This document shows positions 4,801-63,818 of a stretch of DNA of 64,000 bases, piece by piece. Origin of the DNA: a virus (taxonomy: Duplodnaviria; Caudoviricetes); the IMG/VR virus record IMGVR_UViG_3300031853_000015, positions 19,485 to 83,484 of that record; one strand, 5' to 3'. Every line of letters begins with the position of its first letter. Within the stretch, counting starts at the first letter, position 1. The translations under genes were made by a program, and so were the position numbers. The notes under the pieces are model-generated. The model made no database searches. It was not told where the DNA came from and saw only the letters and a list, made by a program, of their open reading frames with translations.

Positions 4801-7800
4801 GGAGTCAGTGTAGAAGAAAATAATAAGGAGCTTGCTGAAGTACTTCTTAAATTACATTCCTCTGATAGAGCTGCAGCTGAAAAAGCCATCGCTGAGGGTA
4901 TTTTAGAGCCTAAGAAAGGAATAGAAGAGGATGAAAGACAAAAGCGACTTAAAGAACTTTTAGGAAGTAATTATAATGTATATTTAAAGTTCATTACTAC
5001 TCCTAAATCTGAAGTAACACGTGGTTCAAGTGGTAGTTCTCAAACAGATGGTCAAGGTTTTAGGCATATAGATTCTTATAGAAAGATAGAAATAATGAGA
5101 GGTACTTGGAGTAGCAATCCTCTTAAGGAAGTATTGTATCAAGAGGTCTCAACTATTAATGAAGATTGTATAAAGAATCATCGCAATCCTACTCCTGAAG
5201 AACTTGATAGAATTCAAGCCTTCCATGTGACAATAATGCCTTTAAAGCCTTACCTATTTACTATGGAAAAAGTACATATAAATGATGGAAAGACTGATGA
5301 TAATCTGTTTGTTCCTGTACAACATAAATATGCAGAAGCTATATTAATTCCTTGCCTGCTTCCTGTTGGAAGTAAACTTAGAGAAGTAGCTGAGTATATG
5401 GGAGAGAATAATATTGATTTGATATGTTCTGATTCTGTAGTAAAGGTAGGTATGTGGGGACAAACTGATATTGAGGAAAAGAGTTCCACTGACATTTCTA
5501 GCTTTGTTAATGAGGCAAAGAAGAATATTAGTAAACTGCCTTCATCAGTTAAAACTGATAGCAGTCCTCTTAGAATAATGAGTATTGAAAAGGGTCTTGA
5601 TTTTAATATTTCTGTAGGAGAAACCTATAATGTCAAGTTAGATGATAAAAATGCTCAATATCATATTCTTGGGTATGAACAAGATGGAGATCAACATCTT
5701 TCTAAAATATGGTTTACATCTTCTGAAGCTCCCAATAAAGTATCTAGTTTAGTAGGAAGCACTCTTGCAGAATTTATTGATGCTGCAGGTAGTCATAATC
5801 CCATTAAAGCTAATACTAACAGTACTATAAATATTAAGGATAATCTATCAAAAGCTGTTATACATGAATTGAATTATGAAGATTATAGAATTCAATCTAA
5901 TGTTCCTGAACATATAAATGTAGAAAGGGCATTGGGTACTCAGATAAGGAAACTTATTATGGGTAATATTAATATGTTTTCTAAGGATGTTTATGGATAC
6001 TTAAAAGATAAAAATGGAGAAGATATATCTTTTAGACTTACTAAAGGAGGAAGTAAAATGAAACTTACTGGTAGAAATCTAGTTTCTTTATATACTTCTC
6101 TTATAGTAGCTAATATGATGCAATCTTTTGCTAAGTTTAAAAGAAATATTGAAAATGAAAAGAAATTAAGTACCCTTCTTACTTCTGCTATTGTTAATAA
6201 TGATAGGTACTCTTTACATCAATTGCTAGACATAGCAGTTAATGATGGCGAGTTTGCTACTCCTTTATATGAAGGTTCTATAGAGCATGATACTATAAGT
6301 ATGATAGCCAGTATCTTCAGAAAAGAAGTTAATAAGCAGGATATGAATGGAGGTAGTGCTGTACAAGTTTCTGATTGGGGAATTACTGCTAAAGAAGAAG
6401 TTACAGGTACTGAAAGACCTCTTAAATTTGTAACGGATGTAAATAATGAAAATGTATTATATGCAGAAATTGAAATTCCTTTTAACTTTACTTATATCAA
6501 TTCTGATGGTATAGAAGTGGCTTTGGACTTTAATACTTATTGTAACCCTGATGGAACTTTTAAATTAACAGGTAATACTATTGATATAAAAGGAGTCAAA
6601 GTAGCAGAAACTAAAATAGAGCATGATTTTCCTGGCATACTAGACATAATTGCATATAGAATTCCTTCAGAAAGATGTTACTCAATGCTTAATTGTAGAG
6701 TAGTCAGATGTTCCAATATGACAGCTGGAGGTACTATAAGAGTTCCAGCCCAAGGTACTACTATTGCAGGTTTTGACTTTGATATTGATAAGTTATACTT
6801 ATTAAGAAGAAGTTTTGTTAAACGAAGAGTAGCTGTAGAATCTGCATATTCAGGAGCCGAAAAGTATGATATTTTTGCTAAAATATATGCTATGGATGCT
6901 GAAAGACAAAGAGTTCTTGAAGCTAAAGATAAGTCTCAAAAAGCAAATATTATTAATGCTCAAGCAGAGAAGACTTTAAGAGAAATGAATCAAGATCCTG
7001 ATGATTATGCTTCAGTAGAATCTCTTTGGGAAGAACTTTTTATAAATCTAGAAAGTCCTTATACTACAGTATATGAAGAACTAAGTAATGAAGATAAAGA
7101 TTATTTAGAGAATAAGCTCATAATACCAGGAGAAAGATTAAAAAATGTAATTTTCTTAAGCAATCTCTTTAATGAGGAGAAAAGACGTAAAGTTTCAGAA
7201 ATCTCCGATGATAAAATTTACAAAGGATCTGAAGTTTTTCATATGTTATTTGATGAACTGAATAATGGTCAAATAAGTAAAAAAGGTTGGAAAATTTATA
7301 ATAAATTAGACTATTCTCAGGAATATTATGATGAGGAACAAGTAAGAGAAGATGAAGACTATATTCCTTCTTCTGCTATAATATCTAAGTTAAGAGCTAT
7401 AAGAGAAGCTTCAGGAGAATATCACTATGAAAAAACTGCCAAAGGAAAAGTAAAGAAGGTTTATGATAAGGCTTTAGCTGAATACTGGAATACTATGATT
7501 GAGCAGAATCCTTATATGGAAGGTGAAGATGCTTATGATAAAGGCAAACTCTTTGAACAAGCAGCAAAAGAACTTGGCTTATGGAAAGAGATTGAATATA
7601 AGGAAGAACTTGAAAATTATGATTTTGATAAAGGAGTAACACAGAATAGTAGGTCCTCTAGAAATAATCTTATCTTTGAGTTAATGAGACAGAGACTTAT
7701 GGACCCTGAGACTCTTAGAGATAGGTTAACTCCGGGTGGATTTGATAATTCTAGAAATGCTGCTGCATATTTGAAAAAGCTTCTACATATTAATGAAGAA

Positions 7801-10800
7801 CAAGATGCTGCAGATCCAAGTACTCTATTATTCTATAATCAGCTTAATCAAGTAGCTGCTAAATTAATTGGTGTATTTGCTAATCAAAGCACTAATCACC
7901 AATTATCATCTATAATAAGAAGTTTAGATTTGAGAGAACCTATTCTTTTCGATGGTATGATTGATGCTAAACTTATTAAAAGCACAGAAGCCTTGGAAGG
8001 ACTAGAAGATACTGAGAAAGAAGAAAAAATAGGGCGTAGTTTATTATCTAAAATTATACAGTTGAAGGATGGTACTATAGTAGATATAGATTTAAACCTT
8101 GCAGAATTCCTTGCTGCTTCTGTAGATGCTGTAAAGGATCCTGTATTGAATTATCTTAACTTTAATACCACTACTGCCTCAGTAGGAGCCTTACTTGCTA
8201 GAATGGGCTATGCTACCAAGGATATAGGACTTTTATTTAATCAGCCTATAATTAAAGAGGTATGTGATATTATTCAAAATAGTGGTAATACATTATCCTT
8301 TAATAGTGTAAAGAGTGATATTATTAAAAAATATGGTACTTATGATGAATATAAAAAGATTGCAACTGATGTAACATCTGAAACATTAGAAGACACTATA
8401 ACCAGATATATAGATGTTTCTGAAAAAGCTCCTAATGCTCAAGAGGCCTTTCAATCTCTAAAGCAAGAGAAAGATTATATGCAGACACAATTAGCTGCAT
8501 TGAAAATATTTGATCAGGCCTTCAAAGCTTCCAGAGAATTAAACAATTTTATAAATACCACTAAATTCACTGCGGCAAATGCTGTAGGCAGTACTTTAGG
8601 CTTCTTTTATAATCAGCAATATAAAGTAGAAGATTATGTTAATCAATCAGACAACATGTTAAAGATGGTTATTTATGAATCTCTTAAGAATGCTCAGGAA
8701 ATACAAGAGGGTTCTAAAGAAGTACAAGATAAGTCTCTTAACACTAAAATACCAAGCAGTCTGGTTAATGATAGAGAAGCTTATATAAAATCTCAAATAG
8801 AAAATCCTTTTGCTTTTGAGCAGTGTATGTATGATTTAAATAAGGAATTTCTTAAAATATTAAGTAAGTACTATCCTTATGATAAAGCTATTTATAAAAA
8901 TAGAAGAGAGGTATTAAGAGATTTTTTAGCTTATACTAGAGTATTGGATGCAGAAACTATAGATTATGCCCATAGAGAAACTATGCAGCATATATTAAGT
9001 TCCACTGATAGTGCCTTTAATCCTACAGCTATTTATGTCAATGAAGCAGGTGAAGAAATATTGATAGATACTGATAAAAAGGATCTTGATGGTAATCCTA
9101 TTAAGCGTCCCTTAACTAATAGAGAATATTATTTATATCAATTTCCTATTGAATTGTTTAATATGGAGGGAGTTCCCAGAATTGATGCTTTAAAAGAGAA
9201 ATATCTCAAATTTACCTATTCAACACATACAGACACAACTACTGGAAAAGTTAATGCACAATTAAATATATCTGTAGATTTAGCTGTAGAACAAACAGAT
9301 AAAAATACTTTTACTAATCTTTGGGCACAGTTAGCTTCTCAGCATTCAGACCCTCTTCATATAAACCAGATAAAAGTAGACTTTATAAAAAAGTATATAA
9401 AACTTCATTATCTTATTCCAATGGATATTACATTGAAGAATTTAGAGCGTGCTAAAGGAGAACGTTATGAAGCTTTAAATAAAAAATATGAAGACTATGA
9501 AGAAAAATTGAAAGATTTCTTAAAAGATATACTGTCCTCAGAACAGTTAGAAGAAACACTTACATTTGCTAATGCAGAAACCTTTATAAACGTTTATAAT
9601 GTAGATAGAATTAATCTTCCTGCTGAGGAACAAGAAGCATTAAATAAAGAAATCCAAAAGAAAATAAATATGGATAATATATGTAATAAAGTAGCTTTAG
9701 GACTATATTTTCATAATTATTATAGAACTGGTTTTGGTACAGGTCCTTTTAGCTTCACACAATTTACTCCTATTGAAGTGAAAAATCTTATTGAAATAGG
9801 AGAGGGGGCAGACAGAATGCCTTATCTAGATTATATAAGGCCTGATAATTTGGAAACCTTAGCTACTGCAGCAATTAAAGGCAGGTATCCTAGAAGTGCT
9901 GTTGAATTTGCTTATATGTATGCTTTAAATCATACAGATGATTACAAACTTGTCACACCTATGCCTTCTACAGGTAATCAAACATATGCCTCCTATTTTG
10001 TAGATGCTTATGGCTATGCTACTTCAAAGTTTTCTATTGATATACACACTGCTGAAAAAGATATTAAGGAGGCTGATAAGAAGTTTGTTATGGCTGTAGA
10101 TAAAGAAACAGGAGATTTTAAGGTACATCCTGTTATTAGAAGGGGTGGACAAATTTATGTAGCCACTATAGATGGAGAATATAATTTTACTGGTAATATA
10201 TTTGATTCCTCCAGGCACATAGTTACTTATATGAATGTACCTATCTTAGGAAAGAAAAATGTTTCTACTACATATGCCTCTACTTTAGATGAAGCTTTAG
10301 CAATAAAGAAGGGAGATGCAGAAGTGCTTACAGCAATTGAACAATCTATAAGTGATACAATTAAAGAAGATATTATAAGAAGACAACTGGAAGAAAAAGG
10401 AGAAGAAGTTGATGTTGATGATCTTCTACATCAAAGTGAAGAGGTACCCTCGGAAACTGTTGAGGAAAATCCAATAGGGGCTAACTTTGCAGAAGATGAT
10501 TCTTATACTGAAGAAGATGTAGATGCTCTTATGGAGAGAATATCTGAATGTAATCAAGTAAATGAAGATTTCTTATTGGAATATGTTTTAAAAACTTATG
10601 ATGAAACAGCTCCTGAAGATCAAGAGGTTGTAAGAGAAAAAGCTGTACCTGCTATTAAAGAAAAATTAAATAAAGCAGTAGAAGAAGGTCTTCCTGCATC
10701 TATGCAAAATACTAAGGTAGCAGAAGCTTATAAAAAGCAACTTCTAATTGAACAATTAGCAAACAGATTAAAAGCCGATGTAAAAGCAGGAAGAATTGAA

Positions 10801-52353: not shown

Positions 52354-52369
52354 ATAAAGTTAATTAAGT

Positions 52370-52438
52370 TGCGGGCCTAGGACTTGAACCCAGAGCTTAA
52401 GGCTATGATCCTCATATGTTACCTTTACACCAACCCAC
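52370..52438 (-). tRNA. tRNA with anticodon CAT (elongator Met or Ile2)
   Basis: Cloverleaf GTGGGTT...TGAGG-ATCATAG-CCTTA...TTCAAGT...GGCCCGC; G1-C72, so not initiator type. Confidence 0.75.
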
Positions 52439-52465
52439 ATATAACTTCTACTCTTTTTTAACCCA

Positions 52466-52678
52466 TTACTTCTTTTTTCCAGATATCTTACCTCCAGCAG
52501 CAAGCTGCATTGCTTGAACCCTCTTAGATAGTTCAGCAGCTCTAGTCTTAGCAACTTTAACAGCAGCTGCTTTTCTATTCTTATCTGAAATTATCTCCTA
52601 ATAGCGTGCCAATGTTTCAGCATCACTTTCAGCTTGCCATTTCTTTTCATTTGCAGTCATATCTTGTAATCCTTTCAT
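52466..52678 (-). CDS. Small basic helical protein, 70 aa, 1 TAG
   Basis: MKGLQDMTANEKKWQAESDAETLARY*EIISDK. Confidence 0.65.
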
Positions 52679-52683
52679 TTTAA

Positions 52684-53142
52684 TTAATTGATAGTTAATT
52701 GTATTGGAATAGTACTACTTTGAAGTATTTTGTATAACTTTATAAAAGTCTCTTTAGAATTAAGAACTTTACCCACTGCCTTGTTTTCTCCTACTATAAT
52801 ACAACCTGCACTATCTTCAGCTGTATTACCTGCATGTATTAATACTCCTTCAAATCCAGGTACATTCAATAGCCTTGGAAGTCTACCTCCATTAGCATTC
52901 TTCATATAGAAGTCTTTTGTACCAAATCTAGGACTTATAGTATTTAATACTATTGTGTAAGTACCTGTAGGTATAGCAGTTTCATTCTAAACTTTCATAC
53001 TTTTTATTACAGATAGAGGCATAGTCTATTTTAATCCTCTATCTTTATCTTCTATAGTATTACAAAAGAAGGCATCATCTATAAACAATTTACCTATAGT
53101 ATAAGTGTCCTTCTTAGCAATTCGCTTTAATAGCAATTTCAT
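52684..53142 (-). CDS. DUF5675-family protein (L,D-transpeptidase-like), putative endolysin, 152 aa
   Basis: MKLLLKRIAKKDTYTIGKLFID...ETAIPTGTY...GVLIHAGNTAEDSAGCIIVG. Confidence 0.8.
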
Positions 53143-53153
53143 ATTTTAAAAGT

Positions 53154-53315
53154 TTATTTCTTTTTGTGCTTAAAGTGTTTTGCGTTCTATGCAAATATAG
53201 CCCTTTTCCTTGTTATAGGATTCTTACTATGAGTAAGTTCTTCAGTACTCTTACCTGTTCTTTTCTTAGTAGCAGTAAATTTGCCTCTGTTTTCTTTCTT
53301 AATATGTATTGCCAT
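53154..53315 (-). CDS. Small basic protein, 53 aa
   Basis: MAIHIKKENRGKFTATKKRTGKSTEELTHSKNPITRKRAIFA*NAKHFKH. Confidence 0.7.
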
Positions 53316-53392
53316 AATATTATAGTGCTATTAAATATGTATTGTTTTAATCTACATCTCCATATGGAGGTGACTTATACATTAAATTTAAG

Positions 53393-53464
53393 TAGTCCCT
53401 AGCAGAATTGAACTGCTCTTTAGAGATTGAAAATCTCTTGTCCTAACCAATAGACGAAAGGACC
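53393..53464 (-). tRNA. tRNA-Glu(TTC)
   Basis: AGAGA-TTTTCAA-TCTCT anticodon arm; T arm AGCAG-TTCAATT-CTGCT. Confidence 0.9.
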
Positions 53465-53467
53465 ATG

Positions 53468-53540
53468 AGCAGATGATGGGATTCAAACCCACAACTTTCA
53501 GAATGGAAATCTGACGCTCTGTCAATTGAGTTACATCTGC
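53468..53540 (-). tRNA. tRNA-Gly(TCC)
   Basis: GCAGATG/CATCTGC acceptor; TCAGA-TTTCCAT-TCTGA anticodon arm. Confidence 0.85.
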
Positions 53541-53703
53541 ATATGCTGTAGTTTATCCATCATCCTACAGCTAATGTGGATAGTACGACATCCAACAGGA
53601 CTAATCTTATGTTGTATTTCTAAACTATCAAAACTTAAAATATCAGAAACAACAGCCTGTAAGTTACGTTGAGTTTTACACTAGTACTATACTCTTTATT
53701 GTG

Positions 53704-53776
53704 AGCCTCCTATAGGACTTGAACCCATAACACACTGATTACAATTCAGTAGTTCTACCAATTGAACTAAAGAGGC
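53704..53776 (-). tRNA. tRNA-Thr(TGT)
   Basis: GCCTCTT/AGGAGGC acceptor; ACTGA-ATTGTAA-TCAGT anticodon arm. Confidence 0.9.
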
Positions 53777-53992
53777 AAAAGAAGGAGGATAAAAACAAAC
53801 TATTCTCAGAAAAAAAGATCCTCCCTCCCATCATTAATAACCACCATCGTAGTTATCATTATTACTATTATAAACACCAATCATATATCCTATAACAAAT
53901 GTTATTAGGAGATATATAAAAACAATCAAGTCTCTCATTAAAATGTTACAGATATTTTATTAACAGCATCCATAAAATTTAATGAATCCTAC

Positions 53993-54385
53993 TCATTCTG
54001 AAGTTGCTTTACTTGCAGTTCTTCTACTACGCTTTTTAACTCCATTAGAACAGTCTTCATCCTTTCCTTTAGTCTCTGTTCCATTGTCTTCTCCATTAGA
54101 CTTATTAACTGTTTTAGTTGTTTTCCTCTTAGGTTTTTCTGTTTCTAATTCCTCTTTCTTAACTTCCTGTACTATTTCCTCTGGTTCTACAGGAACTAAC
54201 ATTAATATTATAAGAGAAATTACTGCCAGTAAAATTGGAAGAATAACTATTATCCAAGGTAATGTGCTATAACTTACCATTTTAAGTAGTATACAAACTA
54301 CTCCTGCTATGAATAATACTGCCACTCCTTTATTAACAACTTCAGTGGAATTAACTAAACTTTCTAATTTTTCTACTAACTTCAT
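53993..54385 (-). CDS. Two-TM membrane protein with a charged tail, inside the tRNA cluster; TAG-free
   Basis: Two hydrophobic segments followed by a Lys/Glu-rich C-terminus; stop TGA. Confidence 0.7.
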   Translation of the reverse strand: MKLVEKLESLVNSTEVVNKGVAVLFIAGVVCILLKMVSYSTLPWIIVILPILLAVISLIILMLVPVEPEEIVQEVKKEELETEKPKRKTTKTVNKSNGEDNGTETKGKDEDCSNGVKKRSRRTASKATSE

Positions 54386-54410
54386 ATTTTATTTTATGTT
54401 AAAATAAATG

Positions 54411-54482
54411 TACCCCCACTAGGATTCGAACCCAGACAAGAAGGCCTAGAATCTTCCGTGCTAGCCATTACACCATAGGGGA
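54411..54482 (-). tRNA. Amber suppressor tRNA (anticodon CTA), Gln-type body
   Basis: TCCCCTA TG GTGT AATGGCTA GCAC G GAAGA-TTCTAGG-CCTTC ... CTGGG-TTCGAAT-CCTAG TGGGGGT A. Weak 1-72 pair and G37, as in the neighbouring tRNA-Gln. Confidence 0.9.
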
Positions 54483-54511
54483 TTATATACCCAGTATTTC
54501 AAAGAACTTTT

Positions 54512-54585
54512 TGGTTGCTCCTGAGAGATTCGAACTCCCCAATTCAGAACCAAAATCTGATGTATTGCCACTATACTAAGGAGCA
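54512..54585 (-). tRNA. tRNA-Gln(TTG) with encoded CCA
   Basis: TCAGA-TTTTGGT-TCTGA anticodon arm; ends AGGAGCAACCA. Confidence 0.92.
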
Positions 54586-54589
54586 ATAG

Positions 54590-54661
54590 CTGCCTAGAAG
54601 AATTATGATATCTTGACCTGCTGATTAACAGTCAGCTGCTCTTCCTCTGAGCTACTAGGCA
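54590..54661 (-). tRNA. tRNA-Asn(GTT) with a degenerate T loop
   Basis: GCTGA-CTGTTAA-TCAGC anticodon arm; T arm reads AAGATATCATAATTCTT, without TTC. Confidence 0.65.
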
Positions 54662-54668
54662 ATTTTTG

Positions 54669-54740
54669 TAGGGGATGGGAGAATCGAACTCCCTTCACTT
54701 GCTCCCAAAGCAAGAATCTTATCCATTAGACCAATCCCCT
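54669..54740 (-). tRNA. tRNA-Pro(TGG)
   Basis: CTTGC-TTTGGGA-GCAAG anticodon arm; GGGAG-TTCGATT-CTCCC T arm. Confidence 0.9.
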
Positions 54741-61857: not shown

Positions 61858-62157
61858 ATGAAGTATCAGCAGACATGGAAAGATTGTTTCATTCATCATC
61901 AGACACAGAAGGACGTTATTCTCCAGAGAATACGTGAAGCCAAACTGAAAGCTGCTAAGTATTCTATGAAGAGATGGAATGAGCTTTACGAGATTAACAA
62001 AAAGCTCTCTGATGAATTCTGGGCATTGTCAGATAAATACCACTCTACAGGGGATTCTGACAAAACATTGGTTTGGAGTATGCGTAGTCTCCATACCAAG
62101 ATGTCTAAGAATAATGAAGAAATGGATCTTATCTGGAAGTTTAACCATAAAAGCTAG
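61858..62157 (+). CDS. Early hypothetical protein, 99 aa, ends at TAG
   Basis: Complete ORF in the standard code; readthrough would add 18 aa up to TAA 62209-62211. Confidence 0.65.
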   Translation: MKYQQTWKDCFIHHQTQKDVILQRIREAKLKAAKYSMKRWNELYEINKKLSDEFWALSDKYHSTGDSDKTLVWSMRSLHTKMSKNNEEMDLIWKFNHKS

Positions 62158-62166
62158 ACTTCCTTA

Positions 62167-62268
62167 ACAGGTCATGGCCCTGTAGAACAGACTTTACATC
62201 TGTTCTACTAAGCCCATTAAGCCATGAGCGTCCCCACACTATGCGCTTGAATAGTGTGGGGGGTTGGG
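62167..62268 (+). ncRNA. Pistol self-cleaving ribozyme
   Basis: P1 ACAGG/CCTGT; pseudoknot TCATGG/CCATGA; P2 CCCA/TGGG; TTAAG; GCGT; 11-bp P3; GGT cleavage junction (predicted 62263/62264). Same element order as env25 pistol. Confidence 0.8.
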
Positions 62269-62340
62269 AATAAAGGGTTAATCCAAAAGCCCATCACATA
62301 AGTGATAAAAAGGATATAACTTTATAAATTCTAAATACAT

Positions 62341-62568
62341 ATGATGTATAAGGAATTTAAAGTAGAAGTCTCAAAGACTCTCGCTGCTAAAGTATGCATA
62401 TCCAAAGAGGATTTGCATGCTCTGGGTGTTAGTACCTCAGAGGTAGCAGAAGAGTTCTTGAAGTCTAACCCTGAATATAAAAGCTGCACTTCTGATGCAG
62501 ACTTTAATAATGGGGTTTGGACTATCTCTTTCTATACTACTTCTGAAGTAGTATTTAAGGAGGTGTAA
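62341..62568 (+). CDS. Early hypothetical protein, 75 aa
   Basis: Complete ORF after an AT-rich leader; TAA stop. Confidence 0.7.
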   Translation: MMYKEFKVEVSKTLAAKVCISKEDLHALGVSTSEVAEEFLKSNPEYKSCTSDADFNNGVWTISFYTTSEVVFKEV

Positions 62569-62621
62569 GACTCTCTGCAAGTTGGGTTTAGGCACACCCA
62601 ATATATAGACAAAAGGCATCT

Positions 62622-62659
62622 TGACTTAATGGGAGATTCAAATAGAAATCTCCCATAGT
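62622..62659 (+). promoter_or_regulatory. Repeated leader hairpin, copy 1 (TGACTTAA-stem-TTCAAATAGAAA-stem-AGT)
   Basis: ATGGGAGA/TCTCCCAT stem; 12-nt loop identical to copy 2. Confidence 0.6.
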
Positions 62660-62683
62660 AATTAACCTTTAAATTCAGATGAT

Positions 62684-62875
62684 ATGAATATATTAGCTGG
62701 ATTCGCACTATGCAGTTTCTTTACTGTGTGTGTAGTGTTCATGCTGGATGCAGCAGTGGATACTACGTACCGCAGTAAATATGCGAAGATTGCTATGTAT
62801 ACTTATGTAAGCATAGCAACTCTTCTTGTAGGAGCTGCATGGTTGTTACTTATATACTCAGCTGTATGTAAGTAA
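62684..62875 (+). CDS. Early two-TM membrane protein, 63 aa
   Basis: Two hydrophobic helices; TAA stop. Confidence 0.7.
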   Translation: MNILAGFALCSFFTVCVVFMLDAAVDTTYRSKYAKIAMYTYVSIATLLVGAAWLLLIYSAVCK

Positions 62876-62929
62876 TAACAATTGGTTGCCAATGGGCATT
62901 AAATGACAGGTAGGGCTGTCAGCCAAACT

Positions 62930-62982
62930 TTCCTCCATTACAATGGGTATTAAGGAGGGTTCAAATCCCTCTGGAGGAACTA
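62930..62982 (+). ncRNA. Minimal tRNA-like element (acceptor + T arm), copy 1
   Basis: TTCCTCCA/TGGAGGAA stem; GAGGG-TTCAAAT-CCCTC T arm; 17-nt linker. Confidence 0.55.
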
Positions 62983-63111
62983 TGTCATGTAGGCTGTCAT
63001 TAGTATGCCTAAGAGTATTGCAGGCTCTGCTTGGCAACTGTTAAAGTACCAAGTTAATAAGACTAATGTGACGAGGGAAAGACCTAATTGCCACTTTAAT
63101 AATCCAAGGGC

Positions 63112-63402
63112 ATGGAAAGTAATATGAATACCTTCTTTAATAATCTTGTTGCTGCTGGTGCTAAGTATCACAACTGTGCCAATGGCGTAGCTGTAGAATT
63201 ATGTGGGCACTTCTGGGTGTTCACTGACACCAAAGAGCCAATCTCCTTGTGGGGAGATGGTAATGGTAGTTATGTCTCTGTACCTCTCAGTACAAAGAGA
63301 CCAGTTGTTTTGGTCGAGAGAGAAAGTATAGCCTGGGGAAAATACTGGGAATTAAGATATAGTATTCCCTTGGATGGAAGTAAATATAGGGTATTTTGTT
63401 AA
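63112..63402 (+). CDS. Early hypothetical protein, about 93-96 aa
   Basis: Complete ORF with TAA stop; start may be ATG 63112 or 63124. Confidence 0.7.
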   Translation: MESNMNTFFNNLVAAGAKYHNCANGVAVELCGHFWVFTDTKEPISLWGDGNGSYVSVPLSTKRPVVLVERESIAWGKYWELRYSIPLDGSKYRVFC

Positions 63403-63434
63403 TATTACAGTCCTACCAAATGACTATAAAATGG

Positions 63435-63470
63435 TGACTTAAAGAAGGTTCAAATAGAAACCTTCAAAGT
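63435..63470 (+). promoter_or_regulatory. Repeated leader hairpin, copy 2
   Basis: TGACTTAA-A-GAAGG-TTCAAATAGAAA-CCTTC-AAAGT. Confidence 0.6.
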
Positions 63471-63491
63471 ATAATAAATATAATATATGAT

Positions 63492-63818
63492 ATGAGAAAT
63501 CAATATTGTATTTATTGTGACTCTATCCATGATGAGAAATCTGAGATGCTCACAAATGGCATTTACAGATGTATTCATCTGGATACCTTCCTTAGAGATT
63601 ATAAGGAAGAGTTTGACATTAATAATGATCTTATCATTATTAATGATCCTGACTCTGCTATTAAAATGGCAGATTCTGCTAAGATTCTTCCTTTCTACCT
63701 TAAAGAAGCAATTCTTCATACTTTGGAAGTTGCTTCTAGGTATGCTCTCAGGAAGGACTGGCCAGATGCGTGGTTAAGGGCTGAAGAAGCAAAGCTCTTA
63801 ATCTACAATAGTCTGTAG
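63492..63818 (+). CDS. Early hypothetical protein, 108 aa, ends at TAG
   Basis: N-terminal YCIYCDSIHD (CxxC); TAG stop; readthrough would add 6 aa up to TGA. Confidence 0.7.
   Translation: MRNQYCIYCDSIHDEKSEMLTNGIYRCIHLDTFLRDYKEEFDINNDLIIINDPDSAIKMADSAKILPFYLKEAILHTLEVASRYALRKDWPDAWLRAEEAKLLIYNSL

Follow-up and report, generated by a model that had tools for sequence, protein, structure and literature searches.

A probable pistol ribozyme with a hairpin inserted next to P1, between two small genes of a crAss-like phage from the cattle gut

Between two small, probably early genes of a crAss-like phage we find an RNA element that we take to be a true pistol ribozyme by descent, belonging to a sub-type with an inserted hairpin (the H form) and most likely working by ordinary pistol chemistry; judging from sequence and its comparison, we put the probability of this reading at about 0.6. 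The stretch of DNA analysed, referred to here as the window, is the final 64 kb of the 83.5-kb virus record IMGVR_UViG_3300031853_000015 in IMG/VR. Within it, the Rfam Pistol model (RF02679) aligned to positions 62167-62268 on the + strand, end to end over model positions 1-68, with a score of 31.7 bits; this falls short of the curated gathering cut-off of 34.5 bits, and in a default Rfam scan only tRNAs reached cut-off. The E-value is 3.3e-4 when all 4227 Rfam families are compared with the 351 bases from 62050 to 62400, and 1.8e-5 for the whole 83-kb record. A check with this covariance model, as proposed in the initial annotation, therefore gives a match that is significant by E-value and yet stays under the curated score. 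No other ribozyme family matched among the 4227 Rfam families on 62050-62400, and for the hammerhead families there was no match on the same bases at E up to 10.

The pairings and motifs that the initial annotation had listed (P1, pseudoknot, P2, TTAAG, GCGT and P3) are all found in the sequence, and the element and its neighbours are laid out as follows.

61858-62157, + strand: upstream small gene (99 aa) from the list of open reading frames; its stop TAG at 62155-62157 lies 11 nt before the conserved ribozyme start
62169-62181, + strand: P1 hairpin in the register shared by the family, AGG 62169-62171 paired to C62178/C62179 and U62181; the loop UCAUGG provides the pseudoknot's 5' strand
62182-62208, + strand: inserted hairpin, 10-bp stem 62182-62191/62199-62208, loop CUUUACA 62192-62198
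62209-62212, + strand: remainder of the P1-P2 linker, UAAG, without the conserved AAA of canonical pistols
62213-62216, + strand: P2 5' strand CCCA, pairing with 62265-62268
62217-62231, + strand: catalytic strand aligned to RF02679, with UUAAG 62217-62221, pseudoknot strand CCAUGA 62222-62227 and GCGU 62228-62231
62231-62262, + strand: P3, a U62231.G62262 wobble (also paired by the Rfam model) and 11 Watson-Crick pairs 62232-62242/62251-62261, 12 pairs in total; loop GCGCUUGA at 62243-62250
62263-62264, + strand: predicted scissile junction G62263/U62264, the two-base GU junction of the Rfam model
62265-62268, + strand: P2 3' strand UGGG, pairing with CCCA
62341-62568, + strand: downstream small gene (75 aa), its ATG 77 nt past the predicted cut

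In the pistol core, roles have been assigned to residues A32, G33, G40, C41 and G42 (PMC6154101), and cleavage takes place in a two-base GU junction (PMC4604425); the junction is usually GU, and its length is strictly conserved in the class. In the window, UUAAG 62217-62221 supplies the equivalents of A32 and G33, and GCGU 62228-62231 those of G40, C41, G42 and U43; by alignment to the Rfam model, G62221-C62229 corresponds to the G33-C41 pair and G62228 to G40. The window's element thus has in common with the pistol class the order of parts (P1 with the pseudoknot loop, P2, UUAAG, pseudoknot strand, GCGU, P3, GU junction, P2), a 6-bp pseudoknot, a 4-bp P2, the equivalents of all five core residues, the association with phage and the location between genes. 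The pseudoknot strands UCAUGG 62172-62177 and CCAUGA 62222-62227 form six Watson-Crick pairs out of six; since the pseudoknot is absent from the RF02679 covariance model and hence unscored, this complementarity is independent support for the match. The pistol identity claimed in the initial annotation is borne out by the order of elements, by every core base matching the family model, and by sister copies that pass the curated cut-off.

With a score below the Rfam cut-off, one might ask if the resemblance is a chance one, or if the element belongs to another class, such as the pseudoknot-containing hammerhead, which shares the pistol topology with the same helix connectivity and a compact pseudoknot fold (PMC11300833). 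That hammerhead has a different catalytic core and mechanism, however, and its core is absent from the window's element, whereas the pistol-specific UUAAG and GCGU are both present. Pistol is moreover the sole match among the 4227 families, and homologous copies score 48.5-54.9 bits. Taken with the E-value for the record and the sister copies above cut-off, we regard this reading as refuted, its probability being close to nil.

Solved pistol structures have P1 stacked on the helix of the pseudoknot and on P3, with P2 alongside and the AAA of the linker bracing P1 (PMC6154101, PMC6101554, PMC11300833); the env25 crystal structures 5K7C and 5KTJ are reviewed in PMC6154101, and in the crystals the A-minor triples on P1 come from the linker AAA (PMC6101554). 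It is here that the window's element departs from the class: P1 and the linker are separated by a hairpin of 27 nt, what is left of the linker is UAAG without AAA, and only 2-3 bp of P1 are conserved. The ~7-nt single-stranded P1-P2 linker with its AAA, highly conserved in the class, is thus lacking in the window; it is evidently not obligatory, since hairpin-less sister copies with a linker UAUAG, likewise without AAA, still pass the curated cut-off.

With a pattern scan of viral and metagenome contigs, the number of distinct copies with P2 CCCA/UGGG rose to 26. They take four forms. In the hairpin-less S form (15 distinct copies), P1 has 3 bp (AGG/CCU), the pseudoknot loop 6 nt and the linker 5 nt (UAUAG), and 11 of the 14 copies that were scanned reach the Rfam cut-off, at 34.5-39.4 bits. 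Set against the window, S copies such as L093:577-649, L099:660-732 and L097:340-414 have the same pseudoknot, P2 and core, several also the same P3 and loop, and the same kind of position, with a stop codon 0-12 nt upstream and the next ATG 18-77 nt downstream; they differ in having no hairpin, in the linker UAUAG, and in that most score above the Rfam cut-off. The H form (seven copies: the window, L090, L091, L105, L108, L109 and L121) consists of the S-form core plus a hairpin of 27-29 nt that follows a shortened P1 and precedes the four final linker bases, UAAG. The stem of this hairpin is GUAG-AACAGA/UCUGUU-CUAC, its loop CUUUACA is invariant in all H copies, and an AG bulge is found in the stem of six of them and not in the window. 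Against Rfam, the other H copies align to the 3' half of the model only, with 27.7-29.9 bits. Three copies of an H2 form, L104:3671-3757(-), L106:603-689(-) and L126:717-804, have another hairpin, of 4 bp, in the place between P1 and UAAG that the insert occupies in the H form, with one pseudoknot mismatch and a poorly paired P1. The C form is the canonical-length copy (L088). Two hits of the first DNA pattern scan, L082 and L083, lie in coding DNA and were discarded as chance matches.

The 99-aa upstream protein has three orthologues (89, 80 and 73% identity), and a pistol copy follows the gene of each. Behind the 89% orthologue it is a short hairpin-less copy, and behind the 80% orthologue it is L088 (48.5 bits), which has an A-rich linker and in which the pseudoknot covaries, with UGCCAG/CUGGCA replacing the window's UCAUGG/CCAUGA so that both strands have changed. 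The copy behind the 73% orthologue, L090, carries the window's hairpin, with GUGU replacing GCGU. As a group, the seven H copies sit behind differing upstream genes.

If the hairpin is left out, the H form has as many bases from the pseudoknot loop to P2 as the S form; we thus read the hairpin as an insertion into an already minimised pistol and not as a replacement of the AAA linker. That a hairpin had been inserted, as claimed initially, is upheld by hairpin-less sisters that are otherwise near-identical and by the same insert in seven copies. The accompanying claim, that this hairpin had taken the place of the A-rich linker, stands only in that AAA is absent: the nearest hairpin-less sisters already have UAUAG. 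We found no description of this form, in which a minimised pistol has gained a helix where P1 meets the linker, in the literature searched, and the sub-type appears to be uncatalogued; the same literature contained no pistol in Crassvirales and no pistol with a linker hairpin, though the founding alignment (Weinberg et al. 2015) may include such variants. The presence of a pistol in a phage is by itself ordinary, pistols being known as phage-associated, with one also coming from a genome of the Bacteroidota, that of Alistipes putredinis (PMC4604425).

The proposed structure was examined with a covariance model built from four H copies and used to align 24 distinct copies, the pairs then being counted with the pseudoknot added; as the alignment is fitted to the structure of the model, and P2 is invariant because the search pattern fixed it, the counts are to be read with these two limits in mind. 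Across the 24 copies, 98.1% of cells pair, compared to 86.7% in shuffles and 28-53% when the partners are slid. P3 shows double changes in 10 of 11 pairs, with 99.6% of cells paired, and its variants within the H group keep pairing, including a double change from C-G to U-A. The inserted hairpin is paired in 100% of cells, with all ten stem pairs present in every H copy; within the H group one pair, in L091, has changed on both sides from A-U to G-C, and three double changes separate H from H2. Across the 24 copies P1 is without covariation; its G-C pairs are kept in 24 of 24 and 21 of 24 copies, and its A-U pair in 18 of 24, this third pair being lost in three of the seven H copies. Minimum-energy folds draw the insert as a hairpin of its own, with the pseudoknot helix and P3 unchanged compared to the S and canonical forms. 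The 5' flank UUCCUUAAC also pairs with GUUGGGAA in the minimum-energy fold (62160-62168 with 62263-62270 of the window), competing with P2 for its 3' strand; this flank is common only to the copies behind the orthologous upstream gene.

In the window, P1 can be extended to 5 bp (ACAGG 62167-62171 with CCTGT 62179-62183), and the hairpin can then be read as 8 bp, 62184-62191/62199-62206, the 10-bp reading using the last two bases of the 5-bp P1. This division into a 5-bp P1 and an 8-bp hairpin, put forward in the initial annotation, does exist in the window, but it is not conserved: L090 is the only other copy that has it, and the register common to all seven H copies is a P1 of 2-3 bp with a hairpin of 10 bp. 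A further pairing, offered by the covariance-model alignment between ACAG 62167-62170 and CUGU 62200-62203 with 23 nt in the P1 loop, was rejected, since in L091 the second strand has changed together with the strand it pairs with in the hairpin, and the first strand is absent from other H copies.

Another reading would make the hairpin a functional module that tunes the timing of cleavage, by binding a protein or RNA or by switching fold, the switch in the window being between a 5-bp P1 with an 8-bp hairpin and a 3-bp P1 with a 10-bp hairpin. A gated ribozyme of this kind might account for the invariant loop CUUUACA and for the second, different hairpin at the same site in L104, L106 and L126. 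It would also fit two contigs, L099:618-732 and L124:699-813, in which a pistol without the insert is preceded, at a distance of 9 nt, by the hairpin core (stem AACAGA/UCUGUU, loop CUUUACA), with a differing stem extension GCAUG/UAUGC and, in L124, a G.U pair and a change in the loop; this placement hints at a role of the hairpin's own. We nonetheless find gating very unlikely: the two-register alternative is limited to the window and L090, the hairpin has no known partner, and outside unrelated coding DNA it was not found free-standing elsewhere in the window or in the viral contigs. Taken more broadly, the idea of a working add-on, be it a 'three-helix' pistol whose hairpin replaces the A-minor brace, or factor-gated timing of the cut in an early transcript, is likewise unlikely in our view; if true, it would provide a natural allosteric or protein-gated pistol, with the same module also working from just upstream in L099 and L124. 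The hairpin as a mobile element is unsupported, as it occurs once in the window and its non-ribozyme matches in viral contigs are unrelated coding DNA. The best of these, L137:8874-8906, comes from an unrelated viral contig and matches the hairpin and the following CUAAGCCC at 30 of 31 aligned bases; an insertion can be ruled out here, since the segment codes for an integral and conserved stretch (GLDRTDVKSV) in a family of 382-aa proteins that have a metallophosphatase-like domain.

We thus return to the plain pistol as the preferred reading. The S form is a pistol that is already minimised, with 3 bp of P1 and a 5-nt linker without AAA; the H form adds to it a self-contained 10-bp hairpin on the distal end of P1 that leads into UAAG. 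In cleavage of the ordinary pistol kind, the 2'-OH of G62263, assisted by Mg2+, would attack the phosphate that follows; the upstream message would end in a 2',3'-cyclic phosphate, and the downstream one would begin at U62264 with a 5'-OH. We consider cleavage at G62263/U62264 probable, since the insert, being at the far end of P1, is directed away from the active site, and the catalytic bases are intact. There are doubts about cleavage by the H form: P1 is very short, and disruption of P1 strongly lowered the activity of a pistol tested previously (PMC4604425); AAA is missing; two of the seven H copies have additional defects, namely the C-to-U change in GCGU of L090, which turns a G-C pair into G.U, and a damaged P1 5' strand in another; and the form may have spread recently, since H and S copies have identical 3' halves, so that their conservation may reflect such spread rather than selection.

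These same points could mean that the insertion, coming on top of a minimal P1 and linker, inactivated the ribozyme, and that what we see is a disabled relic, which persists by recent spread or because a block of 70-100 nt serves as a recombination joint between gene cassettes. The score under the cut-off, the weak P1 and the absent AAA would all fit, as would, for an exchange joint, near-identical copies between at least ten different gene pairs. Against this, the core bases are all present and the pseudoknot intact in six of the seven H copies, with the catalytic strand identical in six of seven; the P3 variants of the H group keep their pairing; and the insert is at the solvent-facing end of P1. 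A role as a joint and ribozyme activity can also coexist. We therefore hold the relic to be possible, if somewhat unlikely, and continue to favor an H-form pistol that cleaves in the ordinary way.

The major capsid protein, terminase and portal of the window match phage families in a PHROG search, and the capsid is 64-66% identical to those of IAS virus, cr116_1 and crAss001-like Bacteroides phages; on this capsid identity the phage is crAss-like. Most of its long (late) genes are open only when TAG is read as a residue, and a suppressor tRNA with anticodon CUA is encoded at 54410-54482 on the minus strand; both this and the capsid agree with the crAss-like origin given in the initial annotation. 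The tRNA array as a whole spans 52368-54740 (-) of the window and comprises eight tRNAs by Rfam and seven by ARAGORN. The sequencing runs containing the stretch are labelled bovine gut (the RNA runs, which contain part of it, bovine gut metatranscriptome), and the host phage is thus a cattle-gut, TAG-recoded, crAss-like one.

At the right end of the record, from 61858 to 63818, there is a run of small + strand genes that are complete in the standard code, with TAG as a stop. The stops of the orthologues of the upstream gene fall at an equivalent site and are TAG, TGA and TAA, that of the window being TAG, so TAG acts as a stop here; judged from these stops, a TAG-dependent switch is not conserved at the ribozyme's upstream gene. 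Completeness in the standard code, together with orthologues that end at the same place in TAG, TGA and TAA, leads us to infer that the small genes around the ribozyme are probably an early operon. The downstream 75-aa protein had no PHROG match. A nucleotide search of 50,697 phage records with the ribozyme region gave zero matches, and back-translated scans of viral contigs with both flanking proteins found nothing. A public contig with the downstream gene begins at about 62175 of the window; we considered this as an RNA end and read it instead as a break in the assembly graph, since ~62175 is the start of the first 31-mer including base 62205, at which the window departs from the other H copies.

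In the nearest long relative, whose capsid is 81% identical, a pistol scoring 54.9 bits comes directly behind a TAG stop, and the order capsid (-), terminase (-), pistol (+) is that of the window. Full synteny does not hold beyond this gene order: in the relative there is no match to the window's flanking small proteins, to its 176-aa protein or to most of its 1717-aa protein. The terminase match of this relative (G001:C1:26610-29714, -) is in two pieces ~850 nt apart, with one TAA inside the match; the split could be due to an inserted element, an intron or an intein. A pistol at Rfam level was found in none of 49 other relatives, whose capsids are ~65% identical.

Apart from those of the H2 form, the copies start at points ranging from 2 nt inside a stop codon to 12 nt past it, and the next ATG follows 18-77 nt after the predicted cut; at least ten distinct genes are found downstream of the copies, and many distinct ones upstream. 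As the copies occur at stop/start junctions of many unlike small genes, the ribozyme forms a recurrent joint between small gene cassettes. The conserved block at these joints is a recognisable ribozyme, and a promoter function is not indicated. Copies between many crAss-like small genes provide a concrete system for asking what pistols do in phages, candidate roles being transcript processing, separate fates of neighbouring cistrons, and cassette exchange. Should the H form indeed cleave, the pistol scaffold would tolerate both loss of the A-minor linker and a helix at the P1-linker joint, and this joint would be a natural site for inserting aptamers in engineered switches.

Two pistol-like elements, L110:~430-499 and L115:159-~230(-), have the 5' pseudoknot strand ACUAGC directly before P2, without a P1 3' strand or linker, and may be 'P1-less' pistols; that of L110 had no Rfam match at E up to 1. 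With H forms under the cut-off and such possible P1-less forms unmatched, the curated model under-counts pistols in gut and rumen viromes. In L102:5473-5961, two pistol copies lie 419 nt apart with a small gene between them, and a 98-kb contig (L132) has at least five pistol-like matches within 4 kb, at 5065-9215 on the - strand.
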